In this document: positions 4,151 to 39,035 of the stretch, piece after piece
Layout of the letters: every line of letters starts with the position of its first letter
How positions within the stretch are numbered: the stretch's first letter is position 1
Origin: Squalus acanthias
Lineage: Eukaryota
NCBI GenBank assembly: GCA_030390025.1
Contig: JASTWF010000331.1
Span: 496,001 to 535,600, forward strand
Length of the DNA stretch: 39,600 nucleotides
Direction: 5' to 3'
Notes under the pieces: model-generated
Told to the model about the DNA's origin: nothing
What the model saw: the letters and a program-made list of their open reading frames with translations, nothing else
Database searches by the model: none
Translations under genes and position numbers: made by a program

Positions 4151-5048
4151 TTATTTAACTAATTTAATAATAAGTCTGAATGGGTATTTCGCCGTTTTCT
4201 TCAGCTCTTCCCTGAATTTAGCCTGGGTGATGACATAGATACATGTGTTGGTGCAGGAACTGAGTAGCTGCAGCATCACTCCGGTCCTTTCAGTGATATA
4301 TAGAGGGTCGTGGGTGGAGTAATGATAATTGTTTGTAATTCGCTGATAGGTGTAGAATACAATTTCTGTCACCCATAACAGTATGAAACTGCCGGATATA
4401 CTGAAGAGTAAGACGATGGATTTCCTCCGGTTCTCCATCTCTGGATCCTCCTGATTCTCTCCATTGCTGCGGCCCCGGAGTCCCCTGCGGACACTACTGG
4501 CTGCTAAAATGTGCCTGGCGGTGAGAACATTGAACAACAAAACGAAAACAAAAGGGAGGCACGGGGTTACAATATAAAACGTTAATTCAAATGCTGCCCA
4601 TGTGGGCGAGATGTAAAAGCTTCGTTTTCTCGAGCAACCCAAGGCACAGTTCCAATGATATGCTGAGGTTCGTATGTAAAGTACCAAGGTACAGATTTTA
4701 TACAGCCCAGCACACTCACTGTTCCGATAACCACAGCCGCAGTTTTCCCGGTGCAATATTTGTTTTTCAGCTTCTGGCAGCAAATGGCCACAAATCGATC
4801 AAAGGTGAAAGCAACTGTGAGCCAGACAGAAATCACCGTGGTTGCAAAAACCAGCACAATATTCAGAGAACACACGAAAGTAATGGAGAGGAAAGAACGT
4901 GGGAAAAAGATGTCTGCTAACCGCCACATCAGCACCTCAGTGACGAGGACCAGGAGATCGGCCGCTGCCATGGCCACCAAGTATCGGGTGATACACTGGG
5001 AGAGACCGCACTTACCCCGGGAAAGGATCACAATCGCCATCACATTAA
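4151..5048 (-). pseudogene. Class A GPCR, GPR139/GPR142-like, main coding exon with one frameshift
   Basis: Two overlapping ORFs give TM1-TM7: AIVILSRGKCGLS, YLVAMAAADLL, TVAFTFDRFVAIC, PEMENRRKSI, SSCTNTCIY, stop at 4151. Splice acceptor tttttctctctcttacAG (AG at 5050-5049). Frame switch at GGG 4638-4640. Confidence 0.88.
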
Positions 5049-5649
5049 CTGTAAGAGAGAGAAAAACGGCACGGGAAATTACACCTCAGACGTCCAACAA
5101 AATAATTGGATTAACGGGATCGTGTGCGAAATATAGAGGAGAGTTCTTGCACCCAATGGAGAAAACTGACAACGCCGCTTTCACAAGTCTTGACAATGAG
5201 ATCTCCGGCACATTGCTTCCTATCCGCCCAGAATCACCTACCCGATCATTAATGGAAGTCTGAGGGGCTCATGCTGACACGGATAGGTGGAATCTCAATA
5301 TAGGTTGAGAAGGGCGAAGGGACCAATGCAGATTGGGCTGGAGGTGCGACTACTGCAGACACGGGATGGGGAGGGGATGAACAGGCAGAGAAGTGTGAGG
5401 TCCAACCCAGACTGAAGGGAGGGTGGAAGACTGATGCAGACAGAATAGGGTGAGATCCATGCCAGGCAAGGGGAGAGTGACGGACTAATGAAGAGGAGGG
5501 TGGGTTCAATGCAGACCTGCGAAGGGTAGGGTCAAATACAAACTGAGGTAGGCTGGGGGTCCAATGCAAACCAGGGAAGGTTGCCGGACTAATGTAGACA
5601 GGGGAGAGTGGGGGAAGAATGCAGAAACTGGAAGAAAGGGGCCCGATGT

Positions 5650-7130
5650 AGAGAGTGGAGGGTGGGGTTCCATTACAGACAGTGGAGACTGGGGTCCATT
5701 ACAGAGAGGGGTGGGGGATTAATACAGAGAGTGGAGGGTGGGGGTCCATTACAGACAGGGGTGGGTTATTAATGCAGACAGTGGAGGGTGAGGGCCCATT
5801 ACAGACAGGTGAGGGGGATAAATGCAGACAGAGGAGGAAGTGGGTACATTACAGACAGGGCTGCGGGATTAATGCAGACAGTGGAGGGTGTGGGTCCATT
5901 ACAAACAGGGGTGGGGGATTAATGCAGACAGTGAAGGGTGTGGGTCCGTTACAGACAGGGGTGGGGGATTAATGCAGACAGGGGAGGGAGTGGGTACATT
6001 ACAGACAGGGATGCGGGATTAATGCAGACAGTGTAGGGTGAGGGTGCATTACAGACAGGGGTGTGGGATTAATGCAGACAGTGAAGGGTGTGGGTCCGTT
6101 ACAGACAGGGGTGGGGGATTAATGCAGACAGGGGAGGGAGTGGGTACATTACAGACAGGGGTGCGGGATTAATGCAGACAGTGTAGGGTGAGGGTGCATT
6201 ACAGACAGGGGTGTGGGATTAATGCAGTCAGTGGAGGCAGTGGGTACATTACAGACAGGGGTGGGGGATTAATGCAGACAGTCGAGGGAGTGGGTACATT
6301 ACAGACAGGGGTGGGAGATTAATGCAGACAGGGGAGGGAGTGGGTACATTACAGACAGGGGTGCGGGATTAATGCAGACAGTGGAGGGAGTCAGTACATT
6401 ACAGACAGGGATGTGGGATTAATGCAGACAGTGGACGGTGAGGGTCCATTACAGACAGTGTTGGGGGATTAATTCAGACTGTGGAGGGTGTGGGTCCATT
6501 CCAAACAGGGTTGGGGGATTAATGCAGACAGTGGAGGGTGTGGGTCCATTACAGACAGGGGTGGAGTATTAATGCAGACAGTGGAGAGTGAGGGTAGAAT
6601 ACCGACAGGGGTGTGGGATTAATGCGGACAGTGGAGGGTGTGGGTCCATTACAGACAGGGGTGGAGTATTAATGCAGACAGTGGAGAGTGAGGGTAGAAT
6701 ACCGACAGGGGTGTGGGATTAATGCGGACAGTGGAGGGTGTGGGTCCATTACAGACAGGGGTGGGGGATTAATGCAGACAGTGGAGGGTGTGGGTCCATT
6801 ACAGGCAGGGGTGGGGGCTAAATGCAGACAGGGGAGGGTATGGATCCATTAAAGACAGGGGTGTGGGATTAATGCAGACAGTGGAGGAAATGGGTTTATT
6901 ACAGACAGGGGTGGGAGATTAATACAGACAGTGGAGGGTATGGGTCCATTAAAGACAGGGGTGGGGGATTAATGCAGGCAGTAGAGGGTGTGGGTCCATT
7001 ACAGACAGGGGTGCGGAATTATTGCAGACAGTGGAGAGAGAGGGTACATTACAGACAGGGGTGGGGGATTAATGCAGACAGTGGAAGGTGTGGGTCCATT
7101 ACAGAAAGGGGTGGGGGATGAATGCAGACC
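5650..7130. repeat. 50-bp G-rich minisatellite, about 29 units
   Basis: AATGCAGACA or close variants recur every 50 bp from 5771 to 7121; unit GATTAATGCAGACAGTGGAGGGTGTGGGTCCATTACAGACAGGGGTGGGG. Confidence 0.97.
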
Positions 7131-13270: not shown

Positions 13271-14649
13271 ATTGTATTTACTGGTAATGGGGGTGAGGAC
13301 AGAGACTGTTTATCCAGACAGTGTGATTATTGGATATGGTGGTGTGGGCAAAGACAGTTTACACGCGCTGAGTTTTTACTGGTAATGGGGGTGTGGTGAG
13401 AGACAGCTTATACACAGAGTATGTTTACTGGTAATGGGGGTGAGGTGAGCGACGGTTTATCCACAAAGTGTGATTACTGGTAATGGGGGGTCAGGACAGA
13501 GACGGTTTATCCACAAAGTGTGATTACTGGTAATGGGGGTGAGGTAAGAGACGGTTTATCCACAAAGTGTGATTACTGGTAATGGGGTTGAGGTGAGAGA
13601 CGGTTTATCCACACACTGTGTTTACTGGTAATGAGGGTGTGGTGAGATACAGTTTATCCGCAGTGTGTTTCCTAGTAATGGGAGTGTGGTCAGAGACGGT
13701 TTCTCCACACAGTGTGTTTCCTGGTAATGGGAGTGAGGACAGAGACGGTTTATCCACACAGTGTGTTTACTGGTAATTGGTGTGTGGTGAGAGACGGTTT
13801 ATCTGCAGTGTGTTTACTGGTAATGGGAGTGAGGACAGAGACGGTTTATCCACACAGTGTGTTTACTGGTAATGAGGGTGAGGACAGAGATGGTTTATCC
13901 ACACAATGTGTTTACTGGTAATGGGGGTGAGGACAGAGACGGTTTATCCACACAGTGTGTTTACTGGTAATCGGGGTGAGGACAGAGATGGCTCATCCAC
14001 ACAGTGTGTTTACTGGTAATCGGAGTGAGGTGAGAGACGGTTTATCGGCAGAGTGTTTACTGGTAATGGGGGAGAGGACAGAGACGGTTTATCCACAGTT
14101 TGTTTACAGGTAATGGGGGTCAGGGCACAGACGGTTTATCCAAACAGTGTTTTTACTGGTAATGAGGTTGAGGACAGAGACGGTTTATCCACACAGTGTG
14201 TTTACTGGTAATGGGGGTGTGGTGAGAGACGGTTTATCCGCAGTGTGTTTCCTGGTAATGGGAGTGAGGACAGAGACGGTTTATCCACACAGTGTGTTTA
14301 CTGGTAATGGGGGTGAGGTGAGAGACGGTTTATCCACACAGTGTGTTTACTGGTAATGGGGGTGATGTGAGAGGCGGTTTATCCACACAGTGTGTTTACT
14401 GGTAATGGGGGTGAGGTGAGAGACGGTTTATCCACACAGTGTGTTTACTGGTAATGGGGAAGAGGTGAGAGGCGGTTTATCCACACAGTGTGTTTACTGG
14501 TAATCGGAGTGAGGTGAGAGACGATTTATCCACACAATGTGTTTACTGGTAATGGGAGAGCGGACAGAGACGGTTTATCCACACAGTGTGTTTACTGGTA
14601 ATGGGGGTGAGGACAGAGACGGTTTATCCCCATTACCAGTAAACACACT

Positions 14650-15430
14650 GGGCTGGATTTTGTCTTGGGGTCGGATTAGGGTCGTGTCATCCGCATTTGG
14701 TGTTTCCCCCCCCGACTCCAGATTCATGTGGATGAATGATGCAATTTTCACTTAATTGGGCAATTGAGTCCCAGCATGTGGGAACCCACAAACTAATTAG
14801 TGGTTTCAGTCTGAAAGTCGCCTCTGATGATGTCATCATTGCTGACTGCATAGTCTCAGAGACTGGTGGTGAGAGAGGACCTGCCTGGCTTGCTTTTGAT
14901 GTGAGTGGACCTGGATGCAAAATATGGGGGGCGGGGGAGAAGGAGAGAGAGAGAGAGAGAGAATGAGAGAGATATTTTTTTTTGCATCCAAGTCCTCTCA
15001 CAGCAAAGGCCAGGCAGTCTCTGAACACATTCAATGCAGCAGCGCCGACTTTCAGACCTAATACTACTACTACCTTCATCACATCTCCGTTGTAATTATG
15101 GACCTGCAGCTGATAGTCAGCTATCCACTTGTGCTCCCGCCAGGTTTCACTGGAGTGTTTCACACCGGGTGTACTTCACGTCACAAAAGGGTTAAACGAG
15201 CTAAAACGTTTCAAAATGGCATTACAGAGCCACTGGCGAGCTTGTTAAGGGCTTTAATGGCCTCTCCCGCCTCTTGGAGACGGGACGGAGTCGGGAACCC
15301 CGCGGCTGATTTTGTCAAAATTGCGTGGAGGCGGGATGGAGTCGGGATGGGGTCGGAAACACCGACCCCGAAAATTTAACCCCCCACACGCCTCCAAACC
15401 CGACTCCGTGGGTCATTCAAAATGCAGCCC
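14650..15430. mobile_element. MITE copy 2
   Basis: GGGCTGGATTTT...AAAATGCAGCCC; homologous to copy 1 (CCCAGCATGTGGGAACCCAC, GACCTGCAGCTGATAGTCAGCTATCCA); internal (GA)n. Confidence 0.85.
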
Positions 15431-17021
15431 TATTTAGCACACAGTGTGTTTACTGGTAATGGGAGTGAGGACAGAGACGGTTTATACACACAGTGTGTTT
15501 ACTGGTAAATGGGGGTGAGGACAGAGGAGGTTTATACACACAATGTGTTTATTGGTAAATTGGAGTGAGGACAGAGGAGGTTTATCCACAGTGTGTTTAC
15601 TGGTAACGGGGGTGAGGAGAGAGACGATTTATCCACACAGTGTGTTTACTGGTAACGGGGGTGAGGACAGAGGAGGTTTATCCACAGTGTGTTTTCTGGT
15701 AATGGGGGTGAGTACAGCGACGGTTTTTCTATACAGAGTCTTTACTGGTAATGGGGGTGAGAACAGAGACTATTTATGCACACAGTGTGTTTACTGGTAA
15801 TCGGGGTGAGGACAGAGACCGTTTATCCTTACAGTGTTTTTCCTGGTAACGGGGTGAGGACTTACAGCGTTTATCCACACAATGTTTATCCTGGTAATGG
15901 GGGTGAGGACAGAGACGGTTGATCCACACAGTGTGTTTACTGGTAATCGGGGTGAGGACAGAGACGGTTTATCCACACAGTGTGTTTACTGGTAATGGGT
16001 GTGAGGACAGAGACGGTTTATCCACACAGTGTGTTTACTGGTAATGGGGGAGAGGAAAGAGACGGTTTATCCACACAGTGTGTTTACTGGTAATGGGGGT
16101 GTGGACAGAGACGGTTTATCCACACAGTGTGTTTACTGGTAATGGGGGTGAGGACAGAGACGGTTTATCCACACAGTGTCTTTACTGGTAATGGGAGTGA
16201 GGACAGAGACGGTTTATCCACACAGTGTCTTTACTGGTAATGGGGGTGAGGACAGAGACGGCTTATCCACACAGTGTGTTCACTGGTAATGGGGGTGAGG
16301 ACAGAGACGGTTTATCCACACAGTGTCTTTACTGGTAATGGGAGTGAGGACAGAGACGGTTTATCCACACAGTGTGTTTACTGGTAATCGGAGTGAGGTG
16401 AGAGACGGTTTATCCACACAGTGTGTTTACTGGTAATGGGGGTGAGGACAGAGACGGTTTATCCACACAGTGTGTTTACTGACAATGGGGGAGAGGAAAG
16501 AGACGTTTTATCCACACAGTGTGTTTACTGGTAATGGGGGTGTGGACAGAGACGGTTTATCCACACAGTGTGTTTACTGGTAATGGGGGTGAGGACAGAG
16601 ACGGTTTATCCACACAGTGTCTTTACTGGTAATGGGAGTGAGGACAGAGACGGTTTATCCACACAGTGTCTTTACTGGTAATGGGGGTGTGGACAGAGAC
16701 GGTTTATCCACACAGTGTGTTCACTGGTAATGGGGGTGAGGACAGAGACGGTTTATCCACACAGTGTCTTTACTGGTAATGGGAGTGAGGACAGAGACGG
16801 TTTATCCACACAGTGTGTTTACTGGTAATCGGAGTGAGGTGAGAGACGGTTTATCAGCAGTGTGTTTACTGGTAATGGGGGTGCGGTGAGAGACGTTTTA
16901 TCCACACAGTGTGTTTACTGGTAATCGGAGTGAGGTGAGAGACGGTTTATCCACACGATGTGTTTACTGGTAATGGGGTTCAGGACAGAGACGGTTTATC
17001 CCCATTACCAGTAAACACACT

Positions 17022-21755: not shown

Positions 21756-22006
21756 CAACATTACGAAAGGAGGAGGAAGGAAGGTTGTGGCGGGGGAGGA
21801 AGGTTGGGTGGGTGGAGGAAGGTTGGGGGGGAAGAGGGGAGAGGGGGGAGAAGGGTAGCACCTGGAGAGCGGGTCGAGGACGGAGTTTCTTCTAATACTG
21901 GAGATGTGCGGGAGCGCGCTGATTGGTCGAGAGCGAGCTTGCAGGCGGCCGCTGGATTGAGACGCGCGGGTGCGAGAGGCAGAGCGGGAGCGCGTCACAG
22001 ATCATC

Positions 22007-22051
22007 ATGACAACCGGAGCGGCCCTCCCCCTGCTGCCCTCCTGTGTCGAG
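22007..22051 (+). CDS. Putative first exon of an unidentified host gene (MTTGAALPLLPSCVE if coding)
   Basis: atcATGa start context, 15 codons, donor GAG|GTAAGG at 22051/22052; could instead be 5'UTR. Confidence 0.45.
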
Positions 22052-22189
22052 GTAAGGAGCGACCCGCTGGGCCCGGAGCCTGGCAACAACCCGCTTTGAT
22101 TTCCCTCACAAATCTCCGAGGCTTTCGGCCGGGCGGAGGATCGCCTGACTCCGGACTGGGAGCGTGGGCCCGACCCGCTATCACCCGGA

Positions 22190-22520
22190 GGGCAGGACCG
22201 GGACGGGCCGGGCCGGGGTTGGAGCCCGGCCGGGCTGGGCCAGGCCGGGTTTGGGCCGCGCCGGTCGGGGTTGGGCCGGGCGGGGTTGGGCAGGGCCAGG
22301 CGGGGCTGGGGTTTGCTGGGCTGGGGTTGGGCTGAGCTGGGCCGGGCCGGGCTGGGCATGGTTGTGCTGGGTCGGGCTGGGGTTGGGCAGGGCTGGGTTT
22401 GGGCCGGACGGGCTGGGGTTGGGCCGGGCTGGGGTTGGGCCGGGCAGGGTTGGATTTGGAGGCGGGCCTGGCTGGGTTTGGGCCGGACTGGTGTTGGAGC
22501 CGGGCCTTGCTGGGGTTGGA
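22190..22520 (+). repeat. G-rich pentamer low-complexity tract (GGGCT/GGGCC/GGGTT)
   Basis: Dozens of GGG runs with 2-nt spacers. Confidence 0.9.
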
Positions 22521-23779
22521 GCCGTGTCGTGTCTGGTTTGCTGCGGGCTGAGCGGCTGGTAGCTGCGGTCCGTCGACTAGCGGCGGCGGATTGCAGCCCT
22601 GGGCTGTCCTTGAGCTGGTGCACAGCGCGGGACCGTGTGACCGAGGGGCGGTGTGCCCGTGCCGGGGCCGGGCTGGCGCTTCCTGCACGGGTGTGGCGTT
22701 AGCTCGGCCCCTGGGGAGCAGCCGAGCCCCCCGCGGGCTGGAGGAGTGGGATTGTCTCCATTCTCCTGATGGAGGTTTTAACATTGCTGTTTCTCAATTC
22801 TCGGGATAGATCCAATGTTGCTGACAGCAGTGTCTGGTGCTGAGCTTTTCGGAATGAGCTTCCTTTACTCCGATCTCCAGTGCTCTTGTTTGTTTATGAA
22901 TAGGGCAAGTGTTTTCTATTGGGTTGGTGTGCTGAATATTGTACCCCCATGTTTAGGTTGTTATGCAGTATTTGTGTGGTGTTTCCATACAAAATTGTTC
23001 TGGCAGTTGAAGAGCTTGTCTGCTCAATGTTTGCTTATGGTACCGCTTCTTCGATTCATCGCGTGATATCGGTAGAGGGCATCTGTTTTAATTCCTTTTC
23101 ATTGAACTGGCTTGCATTTGTGTGTTCTGCAGAGAAGCTCTTCAAATATGTGAAGAAGGGATTCATTTTCCAAGTGATCACCTTGCACTGAAGTGCGGGA
23201 TCACTTCCCTTTCCAGGCATTTTCGCCTTCAAAGCAGACTACTAATCAGGCACTGCGTCGAATATCTGAAAATCCTTTTGTTTGTGCAACTCGCACATCA
23301 GAAAATATAACTTACAAGTATGTAGTCTGCATAATGTACAAACACACAGGTGTGCCAGCTGGCAGTGGTGCAGTAGTGCGGCTATTGCTTTGTGTGCTTT
23401 TCACACTGCTGTTTGTGGCTTTCCTGCTCCTATCACCTTCACACCATTGCTTACATTTTCCAGTAAGAGTGAGTTGCGGGCCTTGGATACTAAGATCCTT
23501 ATCTTGTGCATGCGACACAAAGTAGATTGAATGGATCCATTGAAAAGTGAGTGACAGACACAAGCCAGGTCAAGATGGTGAATACCAGCTGCTTCTGAAA
23601 CATTTTAAATATTTGAAGTGTGAATGGCAGGGCTTGAGTTGCAGTGCGCACTCTGTGTTCATGTCACACTGGGTGAGTGGAAGATCCACCTTATTTAAAC
23701 TGTTTCTGAAAAAGCATTTTTTTATTTCTTCTGGTTATGAAAATGTAATTTTTTTAAGTGGCCTCTTTAGGTTTTTTAA

Positions 23780-29859: not shown

Positions 29860-32130
29860 CTCCCACAGCCACCTCACCCCCTCTTAATGTAATTGGCTTA
29901 TTTACGTTTAAGACTCTAGTTTCGGACTTAAGTTTCACTCTCAAAATCAATGTGAAATGCGATCGTATTATAATCACTTTTCCCCAGAGGATCCTTTACT
30001 ATGAGATTAATAATTAAAATGACAAGCATCTGGAAGCTCAGGGTCACGCATGCGGACTGAACGGAGTTGTTCATCAAAGTGATCAACCTTCCCCGAGGAT
30101 CCTTTACGATAATATTACTAATTAACGCTGTCTCATTGCACAATACTTATATAAAGTAGCCTGCTCCCTCGATGGTTCTTCAACATATTGTTCTAGAAAA
30201 CTGTCTCGAATCCATTCCATGAACTCGTCCTCCAAGCTACTTTTGCCAATTGGTTTGTCCAGTCTATATGAAGATTATAGTCCCCCATGATTATTTCATT
30301 ACCCTTGTTGCATGCTGCTCTAATTTACTGATTATACCCTGTCCAATACTATGATTACTATTAGGGGGCCTATAAACTACTCCCACTGGTGTTTTCTGCC
30401 CTTTTGTATTTCTTAGCTCCACCTGTACTGAATTTATACACTGATTTTCTGGGCTAAGATCTTATCTCTCGACTGCCTTTTTCTCATCCTTTATTATCCG
30501 AGCAACCACACCTCCTTTTCCATTTTGTCTATCTTTTCTAAAAGTCACGTACTCTGGAATATTTAGTTCCCTACCTTGGGCACCCTGCAACCACATCTCA
30601 GTAAACGCTACTAGAGCAAACCCATTTATCGCTATTAGTGACAAGAATTCATCTATCTTGTTACGAATGCTTCGTGCATTCAGATATAGTTCATTTAATT
30701 TTAAATTTTTCGTATTTTTCTCTCATGTGGCTTCAGTCTTTAATGCCCATTTACCATTATTGAACTCTATGTCCATTCCTGGCACAATCTGCTTGATATT
30801 ACCCAATCACTACCCTGCTCTACAGCCTTGACTTTTCTCTTCAGACTGAAACATTTACACTTTCCTGAACCTTCTCTCTCCCTTCATTACTATAAAGCCC
30901 TATCTACCGCCCCAGTTATTCGGTTCACCAGGACACGGGTCCCAGCCCGGTTTAAGTGTAGTCCATCCCAACAGAACAGCTCCCTCTTTCCCCAGTACTG
31001 GTGCCAGTGCACCGTGAATTGAAATCCCTGCCTCACACTCTTCCAGCTACGCATTTAAAAGTTTAATCTGTTTGTCCCTTTGCACATGGCTCAGGTAACA
31101 ATCCAGACATGACCTGTTGGTGTCCGCTTTTTAATTTGAACCTAGCTCCTAAAATTCCCTCAGCAGGACCTCTTTCTATGTCCTACTTAAGTCACTGGTA
31201 CCTCCGTGGACAGCAACAACTGAATCCTTCCCCTACCACTCCAAGTCCTTCTCCAGCCACGAGGAGATGACCTTAACCCTGGCAGGGAACACAGCCTTCG
31301 GGACTCGCGTTCGCGGCTGCAGGGAATCGTATTTATTCCCCTGATTATACTGCCCCCTGCCGCTACTACATTCCTTTTCACTCGCCCCACTTGGATGGCC
31401 TCCTGTATCCACAGGGCCGTGGTTCATTTGCCCATCCTCCTTGCAGTCTCACCTACACCGGTAGCAAGTACCTCACACCTGTTAGATAAGGGCAAAGGCT
31501 GAGGCTCCGCCACCAATGCATCTGCGGTCCCCTTACCTGCTTGAGTTACAGTCACACTCTCCTGTCCCTGACCACTAACCAAATCTAAACAACTAAGGGG
31601 TGTGACTACCTCCTGGAACACAGTGTCCAGGTAACTCTCCACCTCCCTGATCCATCGCAATGTCTGCACCTAGGAATCCAGCTTAACAACTCTGAGCCGA
31701 AATTTCTCGAGTTGCAAACACTTACTGCAGACGTGGTTGTGCGGGATCACAGAACTCTCTACAAACTCCCACATGCTGCAGACGGGACATCCCTCCTGCA
31801 CTGCCATCTTTATCTAACCTTGTTTTATATATTTAATTAATTAAAGCTTTATGTAATTAATTCACTTGGTTTATTTTCAGTTTTTTAAATTAATTAACTT
31901 CACGAGTTTAAATTATTGTTTTAATAAATTATTAGTTGAAAATTTCTAGTTTTAAATAATTACTGCCTCAAGCTTACACAAAGCACTACAAGTGTTAAAG
32001 GAAAAAATAAGCACCTCCTTCCCACTCAGCACCGAATTTCCACTCTCACCAAATTCTCATCCTCCCACTCTGTTCACGATGCTCTCCGCTCATGTTGCCG
32101 GAATCGCCGATTGCCGACAAAGCGGAAACT
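29860..32130 (-). mobile_element. CR1 5' half: 5'UTR, ORF1 (zinc finger/leucine zipper + SGNH-esterase-like) and endonuclease
   Basis: ATG at 31807 gives MAVQEGCPVCSMWEF..HVCSKCLQL; VVAAGGSIIRG (GDS motif remnant); EN motifs TEMWL..RKDR..GGVV and LGKSD. 5' boundary approximate. Confidence 0.85.
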
Positions 32131-32380
32131 GGCTTTAAAAAAATATATAAATGTATGACAGATCACATTGCTCACGGTGACTCAGAGGATTCATCGTCTT
32201 ATCCCAGTTAACAAGTCAGGGCGACTGATTGATGGTAGTTGTGTCATTGAAATTGTGCTTTTATTACAAAGTTGTGGCAGTGTCAGTAATCTGATCAAAC
32301 TCAACTCCATGATTGTGTACATATTTGAACACAATGCAGTTGATCCCACTCGCATATGTAATCTAGACTGAAACTTTAAA

Positions 32381-32820
32381 GCAGTACTGAGGGAGTGCTG
32401 CACTGTCTGAGGGGCAGTGCTGAGGGAGCACTACATTGTCGACTGGGCAGTACTGAGGGAGCACTACACTGTCGGAGGGGCAGTACTGAGGGAGCACTAC
32501 ATTGTTGAATGGGCAATACTGAGGGAGCACTACACTGTCAGAGGGGCAGTACTGAGGGAGCGCTGCATTGTTGAATGGGCAGTACTGAGGGGGCACTACA
32601 ATTTTGAATGGGCAGTACTGAGGGAGCACTAAATTGTTGAATGTGCAGTACTGAGGGAGCACTACATTGTTGAATGGGCAGTACTGAGGGAGCACCGTAC
32701 TGTCGGAGGGTCAGTGCTGAGTGAACGCTGAACTGTTGGAGAGGTGTGCCGAATGAGTGATGCACTGTTGGAGGTGCTATACTGAGGAAGTGCTGCACTG
32801 TTGGAGGGGCAGTACTGAGG
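32381..32820. repeat. 33-bp minisatellite, about 13 units
   Basis: Unit GCAGTACTGAGGGAGCACTACATTGTTGAATGG; 11-aa periodicity in the ORF track. Confidence 0.95.
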
Positions 32821-32953
32821 GAGGCCCCAGGAGCAGCTCCACCGAGTGCCCCGTGGGCAGGTACATACGAAAGATCTCAACCCTTCGACTATTCCGAGTT
32901 ACAGGGATGTGTCCAACAATTAAGACCAAACCGTCCACAGACGTGCCCCATAG

Positions 32954-33974
32954 CATCAACAGGTTCCATCCCACCATCAAACTCACCATGGACTACTCCT
33001 CAGAATCGGTTTCATTCTTGGACACACGAATCTCCATCAAAGACGGACGCCTCAGCACTTCACTCTACCGCAAGCCCACGGACAACCTCACGATGCTCCA
33101 CTTCTCCAGCTTCCACCCTAACCACGTTAAAGAAGCCATCCCCTATGGACAAGCCCTGCGAATACACAGGATCTGCTCAGACGAGGAGGAACGCGATGGA
33201 CACCTACGGACACTGAAAGATGCTCTCGTAAGAACGGGATATGACGCTCGACTCGTCGATCGACAGTTCCGACGGGCCACAGCGAAAAACCGCATAGACC
33301 TCCTCAGAAGACGAACACGGGACACAACCAACAGAGTACCCTACGTCGTCCAGTACTTCCCCGGAGCGGAAAAACTACGCCATGTTCTTCGCAGCCTTCA
33401 ACATGTCATCGATGACGACGAACACCTTGCTAAGGCCATCCCCACGCCTCCACTACTCGCCTTCAAGCAGCCGCCTAACCTCAAAAGTACCATCGTTCGC
33501 AGCAGATTACCCATCTTTCAGGAGAACAGCAACCAAGACACCACACAACCCTGCCACGGCAACCTCTGCAAGACATGCCAAATCATGGACACAGATACCA
33601 TCATTACACGTGAGGACACTACCCACCAGGTACACGGTACATACTCATGTGACTCGGCCAACGTTGTCTACCTGATACGTTGCAGTAAAGGATGCTCCAG
33701 AGCATGGTACATCGGCGAGACCATGCAGACACTGAGACAACGTATGAACGGACACCGCGCAACAATCGCCAGGCAGGAGGGTTGCCTCCCAGTCGGGGAA
33801 CACTTCAGCAGCCAGGGGCATTCAGCCTCGGATCAGCGGGTAAGCGTTCTCCAAGGCTGCCTTCGAGATACACGACAGCGCAAAATCATAGAGCAGAAAC
33901 TGATAGCCAAGTTCCGCACTCATGAGGATGGCCTCAATCGCGATATCGGGTTCATGTCACGATACAGAACGTGA
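32954..33974 (+). CDS. PLE reverse transcriptase C-terminus/thumb + GIY-YIG endonuclease (uninterrupted, 5'-truncated)
   Basis: HPTIKLT..VSFLD..YRKPT..SFHP; CxxxxCxxC; VVY-LIRC..YIGET..LRQRMNGH..GEHF..E..GLN. Confidence 0.92.
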
Positions 33975-34194
33975 CTTGACATCATGGCCGGTCTTTCCAG
34001 GTGTTTTTTTTTTATAAAAAGGCTAACACAAGAACACAAATTGACAGGATATGCAGCCAGCAGGTGGTTTGACACGTTGGTCCCCCTGGGACACATCTCA
34101 TTGTCTTGGCTGTGCTCTTTGTTGTAGCGAATAATGTGAATAGATTTTGTCTGGGTTTAAATTGTGAATTCTGGGAGATTCTCTCATTGCTAAC

Positions 34195-34232
34195 TTACCT
34201 GACGAAGGAGCGACAGCTCCGAAAGCTTGTAA
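34195..34232 (+). ncRNA. Minimal type-I hammerhead ribozyme
   Basis: Stem I TTAC/GTAA, CTGACGA, stem II GGAGC-gaca-GCTCC, GAAA, palindromic AGCT, triplet CUU. Confidence 0.87.
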
Positions 34233-35882
34233 AATTAAATAAATCTGTTGGACTATAACCTGGTGTTGTGCGACTTCCCATAGAATTAAGACAGCGTCTA
34301 CAGAGGTTTCGGAATTACCAGCCCAATTTTGAAATCAGTGATATGGAGAAAGTTATTTTGTCCGCTCTTACTTCGGACTTGCGAGCTAGCCTCCCTTTTG
34401 TTATCTTTAACCAAGGTATTACCCTAAACGAGTTAATTAGTGCCTTACAAATAGCTTTGGGAATAGATTACATAGACCTGGGGGAGAAAATCACCAAACT
34501 AAACAGGGTCCCCAGTAATGTCCTGCCGCGATCGGGGACCGATTGTACACTATCTATGAGATGATGCAAGAGATCCCCAATGGTGACGTTTTAAATGTAA
34601 AGAATGAGTTTACTTTTCAGAAGGTGTATCTAAAAAATATAGTCTGCGCTCCGAGCAACCCGCGGTCATACAGTCAAACACAACTCGCCCTGGATTCATC
34701 TACGAGAAGCGAATGCCACGTGGACGTATTTTAAGAATCAGGTCCAGGGTCCCGAGAAGGGAAAACCCGTCCAAGTAGTGGAAGGGCCCCGCGTTGATCC
34801 ATCTGCGCCCCCCTTTAAACATCATCGGTGCGCTATAATTGTGCAAAGGACTGTCGGAACGCTAAATGGCCAGAGTCCGGAACGGGGTGGTCTAACAATT
34901 ACCACCGCTCAAATCCAAACCCTTAAGTAACTTAGAAAATCATAACACGATTAGACAGAGTCAACATGGTTTTATGAAAGGGAAATCGTGCTGGTCAAAT
35001 TTATTAGAGTTTTTTGAGGATGTAACTAGCAGGGTAGATACAGGGTAACCAGTGGATGCTCTATATTTGGATTTCCAAAAGGCATGCGATAAGCTGCCAC
35101 ATAAAAGGTTGTTACACAATATTAGGGTACATGGTGTTGGGAGTAATATAGCAGCATGGATAAAGGATTGGTTAACAGACAGAAAACAGAGAGCAGGGAT
35201 AAACGGATCTTTTACAGGTTGGCAGGCTGTAGCTAGTGGGGTGCTGCAAGGATCAGTGTTGGGGCCTCAGCTATTTACAATCTCTATCAATGACCTAGAT
35301 GAAGGAATCGAGTGTAATTTAAAGTTTGCTGATGATACACAGATTGGTGGGATAGTAAGCTGTGAGGAGAACAGAAAGAGTCTGCAAAGGGATATCGATA
35401 GACTTAGTGAGTGGGCAGTAAGGTGGCAGATGGAGTATAATGTAGGAAATGTGAGTTTATTCACTTTGCTAGGAAGAATAGAATAACAGATATTTTTTAA
35501 ATGGTGAGAAACTTTCAAATGTTGGTGTTCAGAGAGATCTGGGTGTCCTCGTGCAAGAAAAACAGAAAGCTAGCATGCAGCTACAGCAAGCAATAAGGAA
35601 GACAAATGGTATGTTGGCCTTTATTGCAAGGGGGTTGGAGTATAAGAGTAAGGAAGTCTTGCTACAATTGTACAGGGCCTTGGTGAGACCACACCTGGAG
35701 TACTGTGCAGAGTTTTGGTATCCTTATACTTGAATTGGGGGCGGTGCAATGAAGGTTCACTAGATTGATTCCTGGGATGAGAGGGTTGTACTATAATGAG
35801 AGATTGTGTAGAATGGGCCTATACTCTGTTGAGATAGAAGAATCTGAGGTGATCTCATTGAAAGTTATAAGATTCTGAAGGG

Positions 35883-36119
35883 ATAGCAAAATACTGCGGA
35901 TGCTGGAAATCTGAAATAACAACAGAAAACGCTGGAAAAACTCAGCAGGCCAGGCAGCATCCGTGGAGAGAGAAAGAGAGTTAACGTTTCAGGTCGATGA
36001 CCTTTCGTCAGAACTGTGAAGAGCCGGAAATCAAATAGATTTAAGGCCAGAGTAAAGCTGGGAAAAGGGGGAGGGGATAAAAGAACAAAGGGGGAGATGA
36101 AGAGACACTGTCTTCAGAG
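35883..36119 (-). mobile_element. Short hammerhead-bearing Penelope-derived element nested in CR1
   Basis: Flanked by the direct repeat AGATTCTGAAGGG (35870-35882, 36120-36132); homologous to 20215-20520. Confidence 0.82.
35979..36015 (-). ncRNA. Minimal type-I hammerhead ribozyme
   Basis: Reverse strand reads AGTT CTGACGA A AGGTC-atc-GACCT GAAA CGT T AACT. Confidence 0.87.
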
Positions 36120-37481
36120 AGATTCTGAAGGGGATTGACAGGGTAGATGCTGAGAGGTTGTTTCCCCTGGCTGGAGTGTCTGGAACTAATCTCAGGATAA
36201 GGTGTAGGCCATTTGAGACTGAGATGAGGAGGAATTTCTTCACTCAGAGGGTTGTGAATCTTTGGAATTCTCTGCCCCAGAGGGCTGTGCATGCTGAGTA
36301 TTTGAGTGTATTCAAGGCTGGGATCGACAGATTTTTGAAATCTTGAGGAATCAAGTGATATAGAGATCAGGCGGGACAGTGGTGTTGAGGTCGATGATCA
36401 GCCATGATCCTATTGAATGGAGGAGCAGACTCGAGGGGCCATATGGCCTACTCCTGCTCTTATTTCTTATGTTCTTTTATTCTTTTATATCGCGGCCACC
36501 CAATACCGTAGAAACTAAAATAGATGCGTTGGCCTCTAATCTGGAACAATTAGCGGCAGGCACTGCTAGTCATCTGGACAAACTGTCGACTATTGCGCAG
36601 AATCTTATAACAGCTCAGGCATCGGGATGGCCCGTGGCGCAAACTACGGGCACGCCTCCGTCCAACTCGAACGGGACTGGAAACCCCCAGTGAGGAGGTC
36701 CGGCCCCGTCGTCCTGGTCTGAAGTGGGGTTCAGACGGAACGGTTATGGCCGACCGGTTGTTTCTGCTTTGCTGCCTGAGGACTGCAGCAAACTCTGCTC
36801 ACAGACACCGCTCCGGCCGAGACGATTTACACACCCCACACCCTGAGCGCCACCTTGTGGCAGGCAAGGGTTACTTTACCATCACCGGTGTTACAGACAT
36901 TCAAGCTTCAGCTTACCAGGGAATAGTATAAGTATTGCTTTGGGCGCGATTCTTGTACAAATTACCGAACCCGTGTATAAGTGTATGACCAATGAAATGG
37001 GAAGTATGGGTAGCAGTGCCCTCTGTGCGGTGACCGCTATTGTGGATTAAAATCAAAGCTGTTTATGGGCTGGTTCGGGACCAGGGGATATCGTGCAAAT
37101 TTCGGATGTCCATTCGGTATTTGCTATTAAAATGCCTGAACATGTTGTCTTGCCGACACATTCACTGCCCGCTGTTAACGCCTTAGTTACGGATCATACA
37201 GCAACTTTTGCTAATCGAAACACGATTGTGCGACAATGGCTGGTGACGTACAAATGAATGGCCCACCCCATCGCGCCTGTAAGTAGTACCCTGTTCCGAG
37301 GGAGAGTATCCCATGTTTGCGAACAGTCATTGCCTCATTGGAAGAACAGGGAGTGTTACGTAGAGGGTCCTTCACCACTAACTCCACGGTATGGCCTGTT
37401 AAGAAGCCAGATGGATCCTGCAGACACACTATTGATTATCCAGCATCAACTAAGGCCTAAATGGCTTACCCCTTATCCGTA

Positions 37482-38120
37482 GACTGTGATCCCTGGTTCT
37501 GGACTACCAAGCCATCGGGAACATCCTCCCTGCATCTAGTCAGTCGAATCCTGTTAGAATTTTATAAGTTTCAATGAGATCCCCTCTCAGTCTTCTAAAC
37601 TCTAGCGAATATAAGCCTAATCGACCCAATCTCTCTTCATAAGTCATTCCTGCGATCCCAGGTATCAGTCTGGTAAATCTTCGCTGCACTCCCTCCATGG
37701 CAAGAACATCCTTCCTCAGATAAGGCGACGAAAACTGCACAAAGTACTTGAGGTGTGGTTTCACCAAGGCCTTGTACAACTGCAGCAAGACATCCTTGCT
37801 CCTGTACTCGAATCCTTTCGCTATGAAGGCCAACATACAATTTGCCTTCTTAACCGCCTGCTGCACCTGCATGCTTACCTTCAGCGACTGGTGCACAAGG
37901 TCTCCCTGATCTCGTTGCACTTCCCCTTTTCCCAATCTATTGCCGTTCAGATAATTATCTGTCTTTCTGTTTTGCCACCAAAGAGGATAACCTCGCATTT
38001 ATCCACATTATACTGCATCTGCCATGCATCTGCCTAATCACCCAACCTGTCCAAATCATACTGGAGTGTCTCTGCATCCTCCTCACAGCACACACGCCCA
38101 CCCAGGTTTGTGTCGTCTCT
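37482..38120 (-). mobile_element. CR1 LINE RT C-terminal fragment
   Basis: ORF 37540-37998: LYKALVKPHL..RRLRGDLIETYKIL. Confidence 0.92.
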
Positions 38121-38227
38121 TGACACGCGTGCTCTATTACATAAAGAAAATTAATATTAATGTCTCACTACTCGCTAGTGACTGGGCAATAATACAATGC
38201 AGCTTTCTGTTTCTATAGAAAGAACTA

Positions 38228-39035
38228 TTCAACAACAACTTCAATTTGTATTTATATCGTGCCTTTAAATAAGTAAAACGTCCCAAGTTGCTTCCATGAG
38301 CGTGATCAATTATAATTAATAGCATGTCAAAGATTTGAACATTCGCACAGCCGACCTAAAGTTGGGTCAAAGAAGGAGCGTCTTAAAGGAGGAGAGAGAG
38401 GCGCAGAGGTTTAGGGAGGGAATTCCAGAGCTTAGGGCCCAGTCGTGAGATGAAGGAATTGGGGGTGGGGCGGTGTATCGATGATATTCCAGATTTGTAG
38501 GGATGCAGACATTTCGGAGGGTTGTAGAGCTGGAGGAGGTTACAGCGATAGGGAGGAGCGAAGCCACAGAGGGATTTGACACAAGGATGATAATTTTAAA
38601 ATGGAGTCATTCGGACCTGGAGGGCAATGTTTATCAGCGAGCACAGGGGTGATGGGTGAACGGGATTTGGGAACAGGCAGCAGCATTTTCGATTAACTTA
38701 AGTTTATGGATGGTGGACGATGGGACGACGTTCAGGGCTGAATAGTAATAGTGGAGTCTAGAGGTAACGAAAACATTGATGAGGTTTCCAACAGCAAATG
38801 GCAGGGCCGGAGACGGGCGTTATTATGGATTTGGAAGTAGGCAGTCTTTGTGATAAAGAAGATATGGAGTCAGAAACTCAGCTCAGCTTGGGGTCAAATA
38901 GGACACCAACATTGCGAACAGTCTGATTCAGCCTGAGACACCGGCCAGGGATGCGGGGAAATGGATAGGTAGGTATTGGGGTTTGTGGGGGCGGGGGGAA
39001 GTCAATGGCTTTGGTCTATACAATGCTTAACTGGA
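38228..39035 (-). mobile_element. L2-type LINE 3' fragment
   Basis: Terminal AACAAC..TATTTATATCGTGCCTTT; reverse strand encodes ..WNSLP..SLSSFKTLL; VRNVGVLFDP-like segment near 38890. Confidence 0.65.

Follow-up and report, generated by a model that had tools for sequence, protein, structure and literature searches.

A dead, truncated provirus, probably of the snakehead-retrovirus-related class III lineage, among nested LINE fragments

The window analysed here, a stretch of 39,600 nucleotides (contig JASTWF010000331.1 of GenBank assembly GCA_030390025.1, positions 496,001 to 535,600), contains the remains of an endogenous retrovirus (ERV). With a probability of about 0.9 we assign these to the class III lineage related to snakehead retrovirus (clade Huo), as a dead, truncated provirus homologous to the elephant-shark element CmiERV lineage I, also called ca_mi_ERV1. 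The surviving retroviral DNA amounts to ∼1.65 kb. A gag-like block covers 34277-34930, and a second block, 36490-37480, holds the gag end, the protease and the first ∼85 residues of the reverse transcriptase (RT). Homology of the RT and of the linker joining it to the protease (PR), the gene order, the position in RT trees, the nested insertions of long interspersed nuclear elements (LINEs) and the lack of any later pol or env sequence in the window are direct observations. A first-pass annotation had proposed a spuma- or Loki-like fossil at 32830-37480, possibly of an unreported family. The element is instead a new family member of the described lineage formed by CmiERV-I and relatives of snakehead retrovirus (SnRV), and not a new lineage. 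Most likely it has no function today.

The RT motifs lie where they had been placed by the first-pass annotation, in one frame at 37218-37439 and with the HDC motif upstream at 37221; stops are found at 37284-37286 and 37458-37460. A HMMER search of the RT block against 1.84 billion representatives yielded 53 matches at E ≤ 0.001, the best with E 3e-21. The top matches were a protein from Logan (P0007, 62% identity over 74 residues) and the Xenopus tropicalis Pol P0008. Next came proteins of turtles, frogs and fish as well as P0017, which is located on a 10,688-nt viral record (L007) and matches the SnRV RT printed in the portion of the PMC7947760 supplement consulted. No relative of P0007 was found in viral contigs, and a metagenome scan recovered seven loci among 283 stretches, all distant (36-42%). 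The six ERV pieces gave nothing above the cut-offs in Pfam, and a word-indexed protein search with the RT piece (24 candidates) gave nothing either. Blanks of the word-indexed search are weak, since it missed a 62%-identical protein.

For the phylogeny, references comprised four of six foamy loci, three of three epsilon, three of eight beta, one gamma-like, 10 of 16 Loki-type and 16 gypsy-type sequences, together with 38 unassigned relatives including SnRV. The Loki-type proteins were picked by motif, and the RT start of one of them (P0047) equals that of the published Loki-Lro. A quick tree of 76 rows and a careful tree of a 43-row subset were calculated; support is given as bootstrap/SH-aLRT (Shimodaira-Hasegawa-like approximate likelihood ratio test). 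In the 43-row tree the window RT pairs with P0007 (100/93), is then joined by Xenopus P0008 (100/97) and lies inside a nine-row frog/coelacanth clade (96/94), hereafter the near clade. The 76-row tree recovers the same neighbours of the window and leaves the deep branches open. The window RT falls within the Retroviridae and apart from the Metaviridae: Retroviridae without Loki are supported by 100/98 in the 43-row tree and by an SH-aLRT of 99 in the 76-row tree. Loki sequences (100/99), foamy viruses with the Callorhinchus protein P0048 (99/96) and gypsy sequences (100/100) form separate clades. Trees uniting the window with Loki (p=0.0012), with foamy plus P0048 (p=0.023) or with gypsy (p=0.0012) fail the approximately unbiased (AU) test. 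Scores over the 74-residue block rank the groups similarly, with the near clade at best 239, SnRV 157, Loki at best 120 (n=10), foamy at best 117 (n=4) and gypsy at best 76 (n=16). In a leave-one-out control, top hits over this short block assigned 43 of the 45 labelled references correctly; the two failures were gypsy rows.

A comparison of the PR-RT linker, which is independent of the RT, points in the same direction. The protease starts in the gag frame (GRP, 36748) and has a degenerate active-site motif, DTA, at 36804; two frame breaks follow between ∼36.77 and 36.88 kb, and a stop is present at 37048-37050. Compared on its own with 18 references, the N-terminal part containing DTA reached no significance. 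The frame 36880-37212 aligns to Xenopus P0008 over the C-terminus of PR and the linker with a score of 128, which none of 500 shuffles reached; this confirms the C-terminal half of the protease segment described by the first-pass annotation. Scores of 105 for P0097, 92 for a turtle Pol, 48-68 for frog Pols and 57 for SnRV were likewise reached by 0/500 shuffles. The same region scored at or near chance against three Loki, two foamy (20-28), one epsilon (walleye dermal sarcoma virus), one ERV-L-like and two gypsy Pols. Spacing agrees with these alignments. From DTA to HDC (37221) there are 417 nt or 139 codons, compared to 139 in Xenopus, 138 in SnRV, 121 in foamy viruses and 183-552 in the five Loki Pols in which the distance was measurable. 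The stretch from HDC to QY has 23 residues here as well as in Xenopus and frog, 24 in SnRV and 27 in 7/7 Loki Pols. The long PR-RT region and the 27-residue xDCG-to-QY spacing of Loki are observations on the Pols compared and not a published definition.

The end of gag adds a further feature. Its TGA (36691-36693) is in frame with the downstream pro, which also holds for L007, the snakehead record, and by eye for CmiERV-I. Gag and pro-pol sharing one frame with an intervening stop is an arrangement of the SnRV-related clade, though not exclusive to it. Upstream, the gag-like block contains SDLR (34373), a major-homology-like motif KQG..P.A...RL..Y (34501) and a partial zinc-knuckle remnant (34834); the block is disrupted by several stops and, near 34.50 kb, by a frame break. 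Compared by eye, CmiERV-I gag shares SDLR, a GI at the same offset and the KQG..P.A...RL..Y motif, at a spacing of 43 vs 46 residues. The zinc-knuckle remnant claimed by the first-pass annotation keeps only part of the CCHC pattern and is not callable alone. Both SnRV Gag and, judged by eye, CmiERV-I gag have a CCHC box, which is absent from the Loki Gag open reading frames (ORFs) and polyproteins compared and from three foamy Gags. If it is a knuckle, the remnant therefore favours an SnRV-type over a Loki-type element. Gag-like, protease and RT segments follow each other in the order previously proposed, all on the + strand; for pro-RT this order is collinear with Xenopus P0008, and for gag it rests on inspection by eye.

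A complete elephant-shark provirus, CmiERV lineage I (CmiERV_Scaffold 2), was reported to cluster with SnRV (Han 2015, PMC4422223). Its Pol was printed as ca_mi_ERV1 by Xu et al. (2018, PMC6001957), whose clade Huo is defined by relatedness to SnRV, takes in class III ERVs and is represented across all major lineages of vertebrates; for a reptile lineage of this clade they report repeated invasion across species. Both papers are used here from the sections and supplementary file consulted. By hand count ca_mi_ERV1 and the window RT are identical at 45/74 residues without gaps, and CKQYP and FTTNS each occur once in the supplement file examined, both times in ca_mi_ERV1. In the printed CmiERV-I sequence the motifs NGP.H..CK and G.FTTNS and a gag end of PQ-TGA, read in frame with pro, recur by eye; so do a W..V.F......RP..S stretch past the stop, a similar PR-linker and the capsid motifs at near-equal spacing, a likeness that carries no statistics. 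As printed, CmiERV-I is a complete provirus with LTRs (long terminal repeats), integrase, a gamma-type env and a full CCHC knuckle, while the present locus is a 1.65-kb broken remnant. Since the RT amino-acid sequences diverge by ∼39%, the window element represents a separate family of the same lineage.

Exogenous SnRV (L007/P0017) shares 43% identity over 79 RT residues with the window, a nearly equal PR-to-xDC distance, a significant PR-linker match and gag and pol in one frame, but it is more distant than the relatives from Xenopus and Logan. The nearest protein of a named host in the tree is the Xenopus Pol (UniRef A0A803JYW4), which stands together with frog, coelacanth and turtle proteins annotated as 'NYNRIN-like' and has the same PR-to-HDC and HDC-to-QY lengths as the window. 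The frog, coelacanth and turtle Pols differ in being open and full-length and in their hosts, tetrapods and coelacanth; identity over the RT block is 51%. Hand count, tree neighbours and block scores agree that the Pol is closest to lineage I and SnRV-related elements. At lineage level the suggested novelty was not borne out: the elephant-shark relative is published, and in the part consulted of a survey by database-integrated genome screening (DIGS) most ERV RTs of cartilaginous fish belong to clade III (bioRxiv 10.1101/2023.10.17.562709). We found no paper that names this locus or family; subscription papers and Repbase/Dfam were outside the search and may already name it, and the particular family may be unnamed.

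Several points weigh against the assignment to the SnRV-related lineage. The window fills only 82 of ∼285 columns of the RT alignment (29%). The 19-row group that unites the near clade with SnRV and with bird, turtle and platypus elements is supported by 88/96 in the 43-row tree and was not recovered in the 76-row quick tree, which makes the grouping with SnRV itself less than strong. The PR-linker does not match the coelacanth member of the near clade (scores of 30-37, chance level). CmiERV-I was compared by eye and by hand count only and is in none of the trees. Finally, the gag-like block scored at chance level against 13/13 Gag proteins compared, and its probable identity as a gag remnant (34277-34930) rests on the comparison by eye with the published CmiERV lineage I gag, with no statistics. 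The block had no significant pairwise match to a coelacanth Gag-Pol, no match in Pfam and no homologue in the word-indexed protein search (189 candidates), a weak blank; a single-sequence AlphaFold model of five helices was uninformative (pLDDT, predicted local distance difference test, 41.5).

These gag results leave room for an alternative in which the pro-RT block is a snakehead-type ERV and the upstream block is unrelated DNA, joined to it by a rearrangement bounded by CR1. Besides the missing Gag, Pfam and homologue matches it could appeal to the sequencing runs, where among the contigs listed none joins the two ERV blocks across the CR1 and a further 1197 joints lie outside these. It leaves unexplained why three features shared by eye with CmiERV-I gag occur at near-equal spacing, and why the gag and pol blocks agree in low read depth and in having a second copy of similar divergence. 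We consider such a rearrangement improbable.

A foamy-like ERV (FLERV; clade Tu) is less probable. The catshark element ERV-Spuma.0-Sca has been placed in the foamy clade, according to the part of that report consulted (Song 2023, PMC10699275), and with the foamy viruses and P0048 the window shares a general class III similarity of the RT start (30/73 residues to the best foamy sequence). Among solved structures the RT block matched foamy PR-RT best (E 1.2e-7), ahead of feline immunodeficiency virus (0.027) and murine leukaemia virus (1 or more), and no Ty3 entry was among the 10 matches up to E 10. As no snakehead-type RT is among these structure matches, the ranking reflects sampling, and it accounts for the foamy impression of the first-pass annotation. 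Foamy sampling in the tree was limited to three or four exogenous foamy viruses and Callorhinchus P0048, with teleost FLERVs left out. Against this reading stand the AU test, calculated with three foamy viruses and P0048, the separate foamy clade, the lack of HDC in foamy viruses and the chance-level linker similarity. The published RT starts of AciFLERV, AliFLERV and ZFERV-2 also lack, by eye, WPV..PDGS..TIDY. Foamy pol is made from a spliced pol mRNA. In the foamy records L001, L002, L004 and L005 gag and pol lie in different frames, whereas pro is here in frame with the gag stop. The label spuma-like is thus acceptable in the loose class III sense and does not extend to membership of the foamy clade.

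Even less probable is a lokiretrovirus; if it were one, it would be the first in cartilaginous fish. HDC and WPV.KP.G...TIDY also occur in Loki RTs, Loki elements have an xDCG motif before RT and gag and pol in one frame (L021), and the PR-linker gave one weak score of 46 against one of the three Loki Pols (6-13/500 shuffles as high). However, Loki sequences, a clade sister to all other retroviruses, are monophyletic without the window and the AU test rejects their union. Both spacings given above differ, the PR-RT region of Loki being much longer; the Loki pattern QY(K/R)(I/L)P is absent from the window, and Loki elements carry a paramyxovirus-F-like (F-type) env, a CGIN1-like integrase and, in the Gags compared, no CCHC. 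Because HDC is common to Loki and the SnRV-related clade, the motif does not discriminate between them and is no Loki marker, while the spacing around it is; the Loki affinity suggested by the first-pass annotation has therefore to be given up. Lokiretroviruses were present in 0/3 chondrichthyan genomes in the part consulted of a previous survey (Wang and Han 2021, PMC7947760). Two metagenome contigs (L021, L022), probably fish host DNA, contain lokiretrovirus-like elements that are nearly complete and have gag, a long pol and env. A Ty3/gypsy LTR retrotransposon can practically be dismissed, as one gypsy-type protein (P0026) among the 53 representative matches stands against the AU test and the block scores, and the earlier view of a retrovirus rather than Ty3/gypsy is confirmed.

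The dead provirus is embedded in layered repeats, which a six-frame reading of 32.7-38.3 kb revealed around the two low-depth ERV blocks (Table 1). Two LINE fragments, which we take to be of CR1 type, and a Penelope-like element, presumably including its tail, make up these layers. A CR1 fragment separates the ERV blocks, the Penelope-like element adjoins their 5' side and an inverted CR1 their 3' side; only the first CR1 demonstrably interrupts the provirus. It carries RVT_1 (E 6e-13) in the ORF 35049-35486. The Penelope-like ORF 32757-33974 resembles GIY-YIG/HTH_animal proteins (Atlas 0.96), with a tail ending near 34276. The insertions assumed by the first-pass annotation are thus real, but 32830-34276 is the Penelope-like element itself and retroviral DNA begins at ∼34277.

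Table 1. Coordinates of the provirus remains and of the neighbouring repeats in the window
Feature	Position	Strand	Remarks
33-bp minisatellite, 13.5 copies	32381..32823	.	host repeat flanking the Penelope-like element, outside the provirus; very high depth in 4/4 runs examined
5'-truncated Penelope-like element, GIY-YIG-type ORF and 3' tail	32830..34276	+	Atlas 0.96 to HTH_animal/GIY-YIG clusters; 5' boundary approximate, taken from the first-pass annotation
Gag-like remnant (probable)	34277..34930	+	by-eye match to CmiERV_Scaffold 2 gag; low depth; diverged second copy in run X5 starts matching at 34277
CR1-type LINE fragment (RT part and 3' tail), within gag between knuckle remnant and gag end	34930..36490	+	RVT_1 E 6e-13; very high depth
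Short Penelope-tail-like insert (237 bp), nested in CR1	35883..36119	-	13-bp exact direct repeat on either side (35870-35882 / 36120-36132)
Gag 3' end, closing PQ-TGA	36490..36693	+	stop 36691-36693; same PQ-TGA end by eye in CmiERV_Scaffold 2
Protease and PR-RT linker	36694..37215	+	linker significant vs Xenopus P0008, P0097, turtle P0100, frog P0025/P0096, snakehead retrovirus
RT, N-terminal ∼85 residues, HDC to TIDY	37218..37480	+	a frame break near 37.21 kb leads into it; catalytic motifs not reached
Second CR1-type fragment, inverted; provirus breaks off there	37480..38040	-	ORF 37540-37998 on minus strand; 72% inverted match to first CR1

A search of the whole window recovered the RT start at E 1e-13 or better but no RT core, RNase H, integrase or env. 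Upstream of the Penelope-like element no ERV-like sequence was recognised by a search of little power, and 31800-38400 contains no long direct repeats besides the minisatellite. The Penelope-tail-like insert with its 13-bp exact target duplication lies in the CR1, which lies in the ERV gag, a nesting of three levels at 35870-36132. Both Penelope-type tails (34199-34224, + strand; 36011, - strand) bear a hammerhead-core-like motif CTGANGA...GAAA; it folds no better than shuffles (z -1.6), and Rfam gave 0 matches in the window.

Public sequencing runs contain further copies. The region 36480-37490 is present in 13 runs from five studies with at least five organism labels, and four of the runs were examined in detail. 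Read depth, which is not copy number and was used solely to separate high-copy repeats from ERV blocks, was tens to hundreds for the ERV blocks and 1e5-1e6 for the LINEs; for the Penelope-like element it was high in runs X5-X7 and none in X10. A diverged second copy is suggested by run X5, whose contigs cover 34277-34821 (69 differences) and 36826-37352 (44 differences, 27 gaps). Since the gag-side contig has 47 extra upstream letters that do not fit the Penelope tail, the junction of Penelope-like element and ERV is specific to the present locus. A contig of organism C spans the junction of CR1 tail and ERV with 13 differences over 36455-36917. It appears to represent the same nested locus and, if the labels stand for distinct species, implies a nested structure older than the split from organism C. 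In organism E, ∼10 contigs with a likeness of ≥80% cover the RT part and none covers the Penelope-like element; fuller copies may survive there. Contigs of three runs show 1-2 differences per 220-320 nt around PR-linker and RT start (37016-37345) and 5-19 per 200-460 nt in the gag blocks (34544-34863, 36455-36917), an unevenness that could reflect a mix of orthologous and paralogous contigs.

For the origin of the provirus we propose that an SnRV-type retrovirus, exogenous or reinfecting, integrated into an ancestral germ line. Gag and Gag-Pol would have been produced from one frame by read-through of the TGA at the gag end, as arranged in SnRV. After fixation the copy would have decayed neutrally, with insertion of the CR1 into gag and of the short Penelope tail into the CR1 and with accumulation of stops and frame breaks. 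The 5' LTR with the start of gag and everything beyond the early RT were probably lost at the junctions that are now held by the Penelope-like element and the inverted CR1.

As it stands the locus matters little, being one more decayed class III ERV in the hosts where such ERVs are reported to be commonest. It extends the elephant-shark CmiERV-I lineage to another genome, probably that of an elasmobranch, and to several related organisms. A cartilaginous-fish host would agree with the closest relative and with the repeat content. There is a small chance that the window family, Logan Pol P0007 and CmiERV-I form a sub-lineage of snakehead-type retroviruses specific to cartilaginous fish. If this were true and the sub-lineage had codiverged with its hosts since the split of sharks and chimaeras, class III retroviruses that lie outside the foamy clade would receive an independent calibration in the Palaeozoic. 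The finding would gain weight if copies in sharks, rays and chimaeras tracked host phylogeny, since the lineage would then be dated.

Among the reference records, the Microcaecilia unicolor protein P0094 combines parts of two ERVs, a class III-type gag-RT and a gag/pol of gamma type; gene prediction has probably joined the pieces of a nested insertion. Elsewhere in the window, a single-exon gene for a G-protein-coupled receptor of the rhodopsin family (4151-5085, - strand; Atlas 0.96 to 7tm_1 clusters) is split over two frames (4582-5085 and 4151-4798) and may be a frameshifted pseudogene or reflect an assembly error; it presumably resembles the GPR139/TRH-receptor-like genes expanded in sharks. 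Long minisatellites occupy 5676-7129 (50 bp, 29 copies) and 13273-17001 (49 bp, 76 copies), the latter interrupted near 14.7-15.4 kb by LINE-like DNA resembling that at 12.5-13.3 kb. A GC-rich island at 22001-23000 (65% GC) with GGGCC-type repeats is possibly a promoter region.

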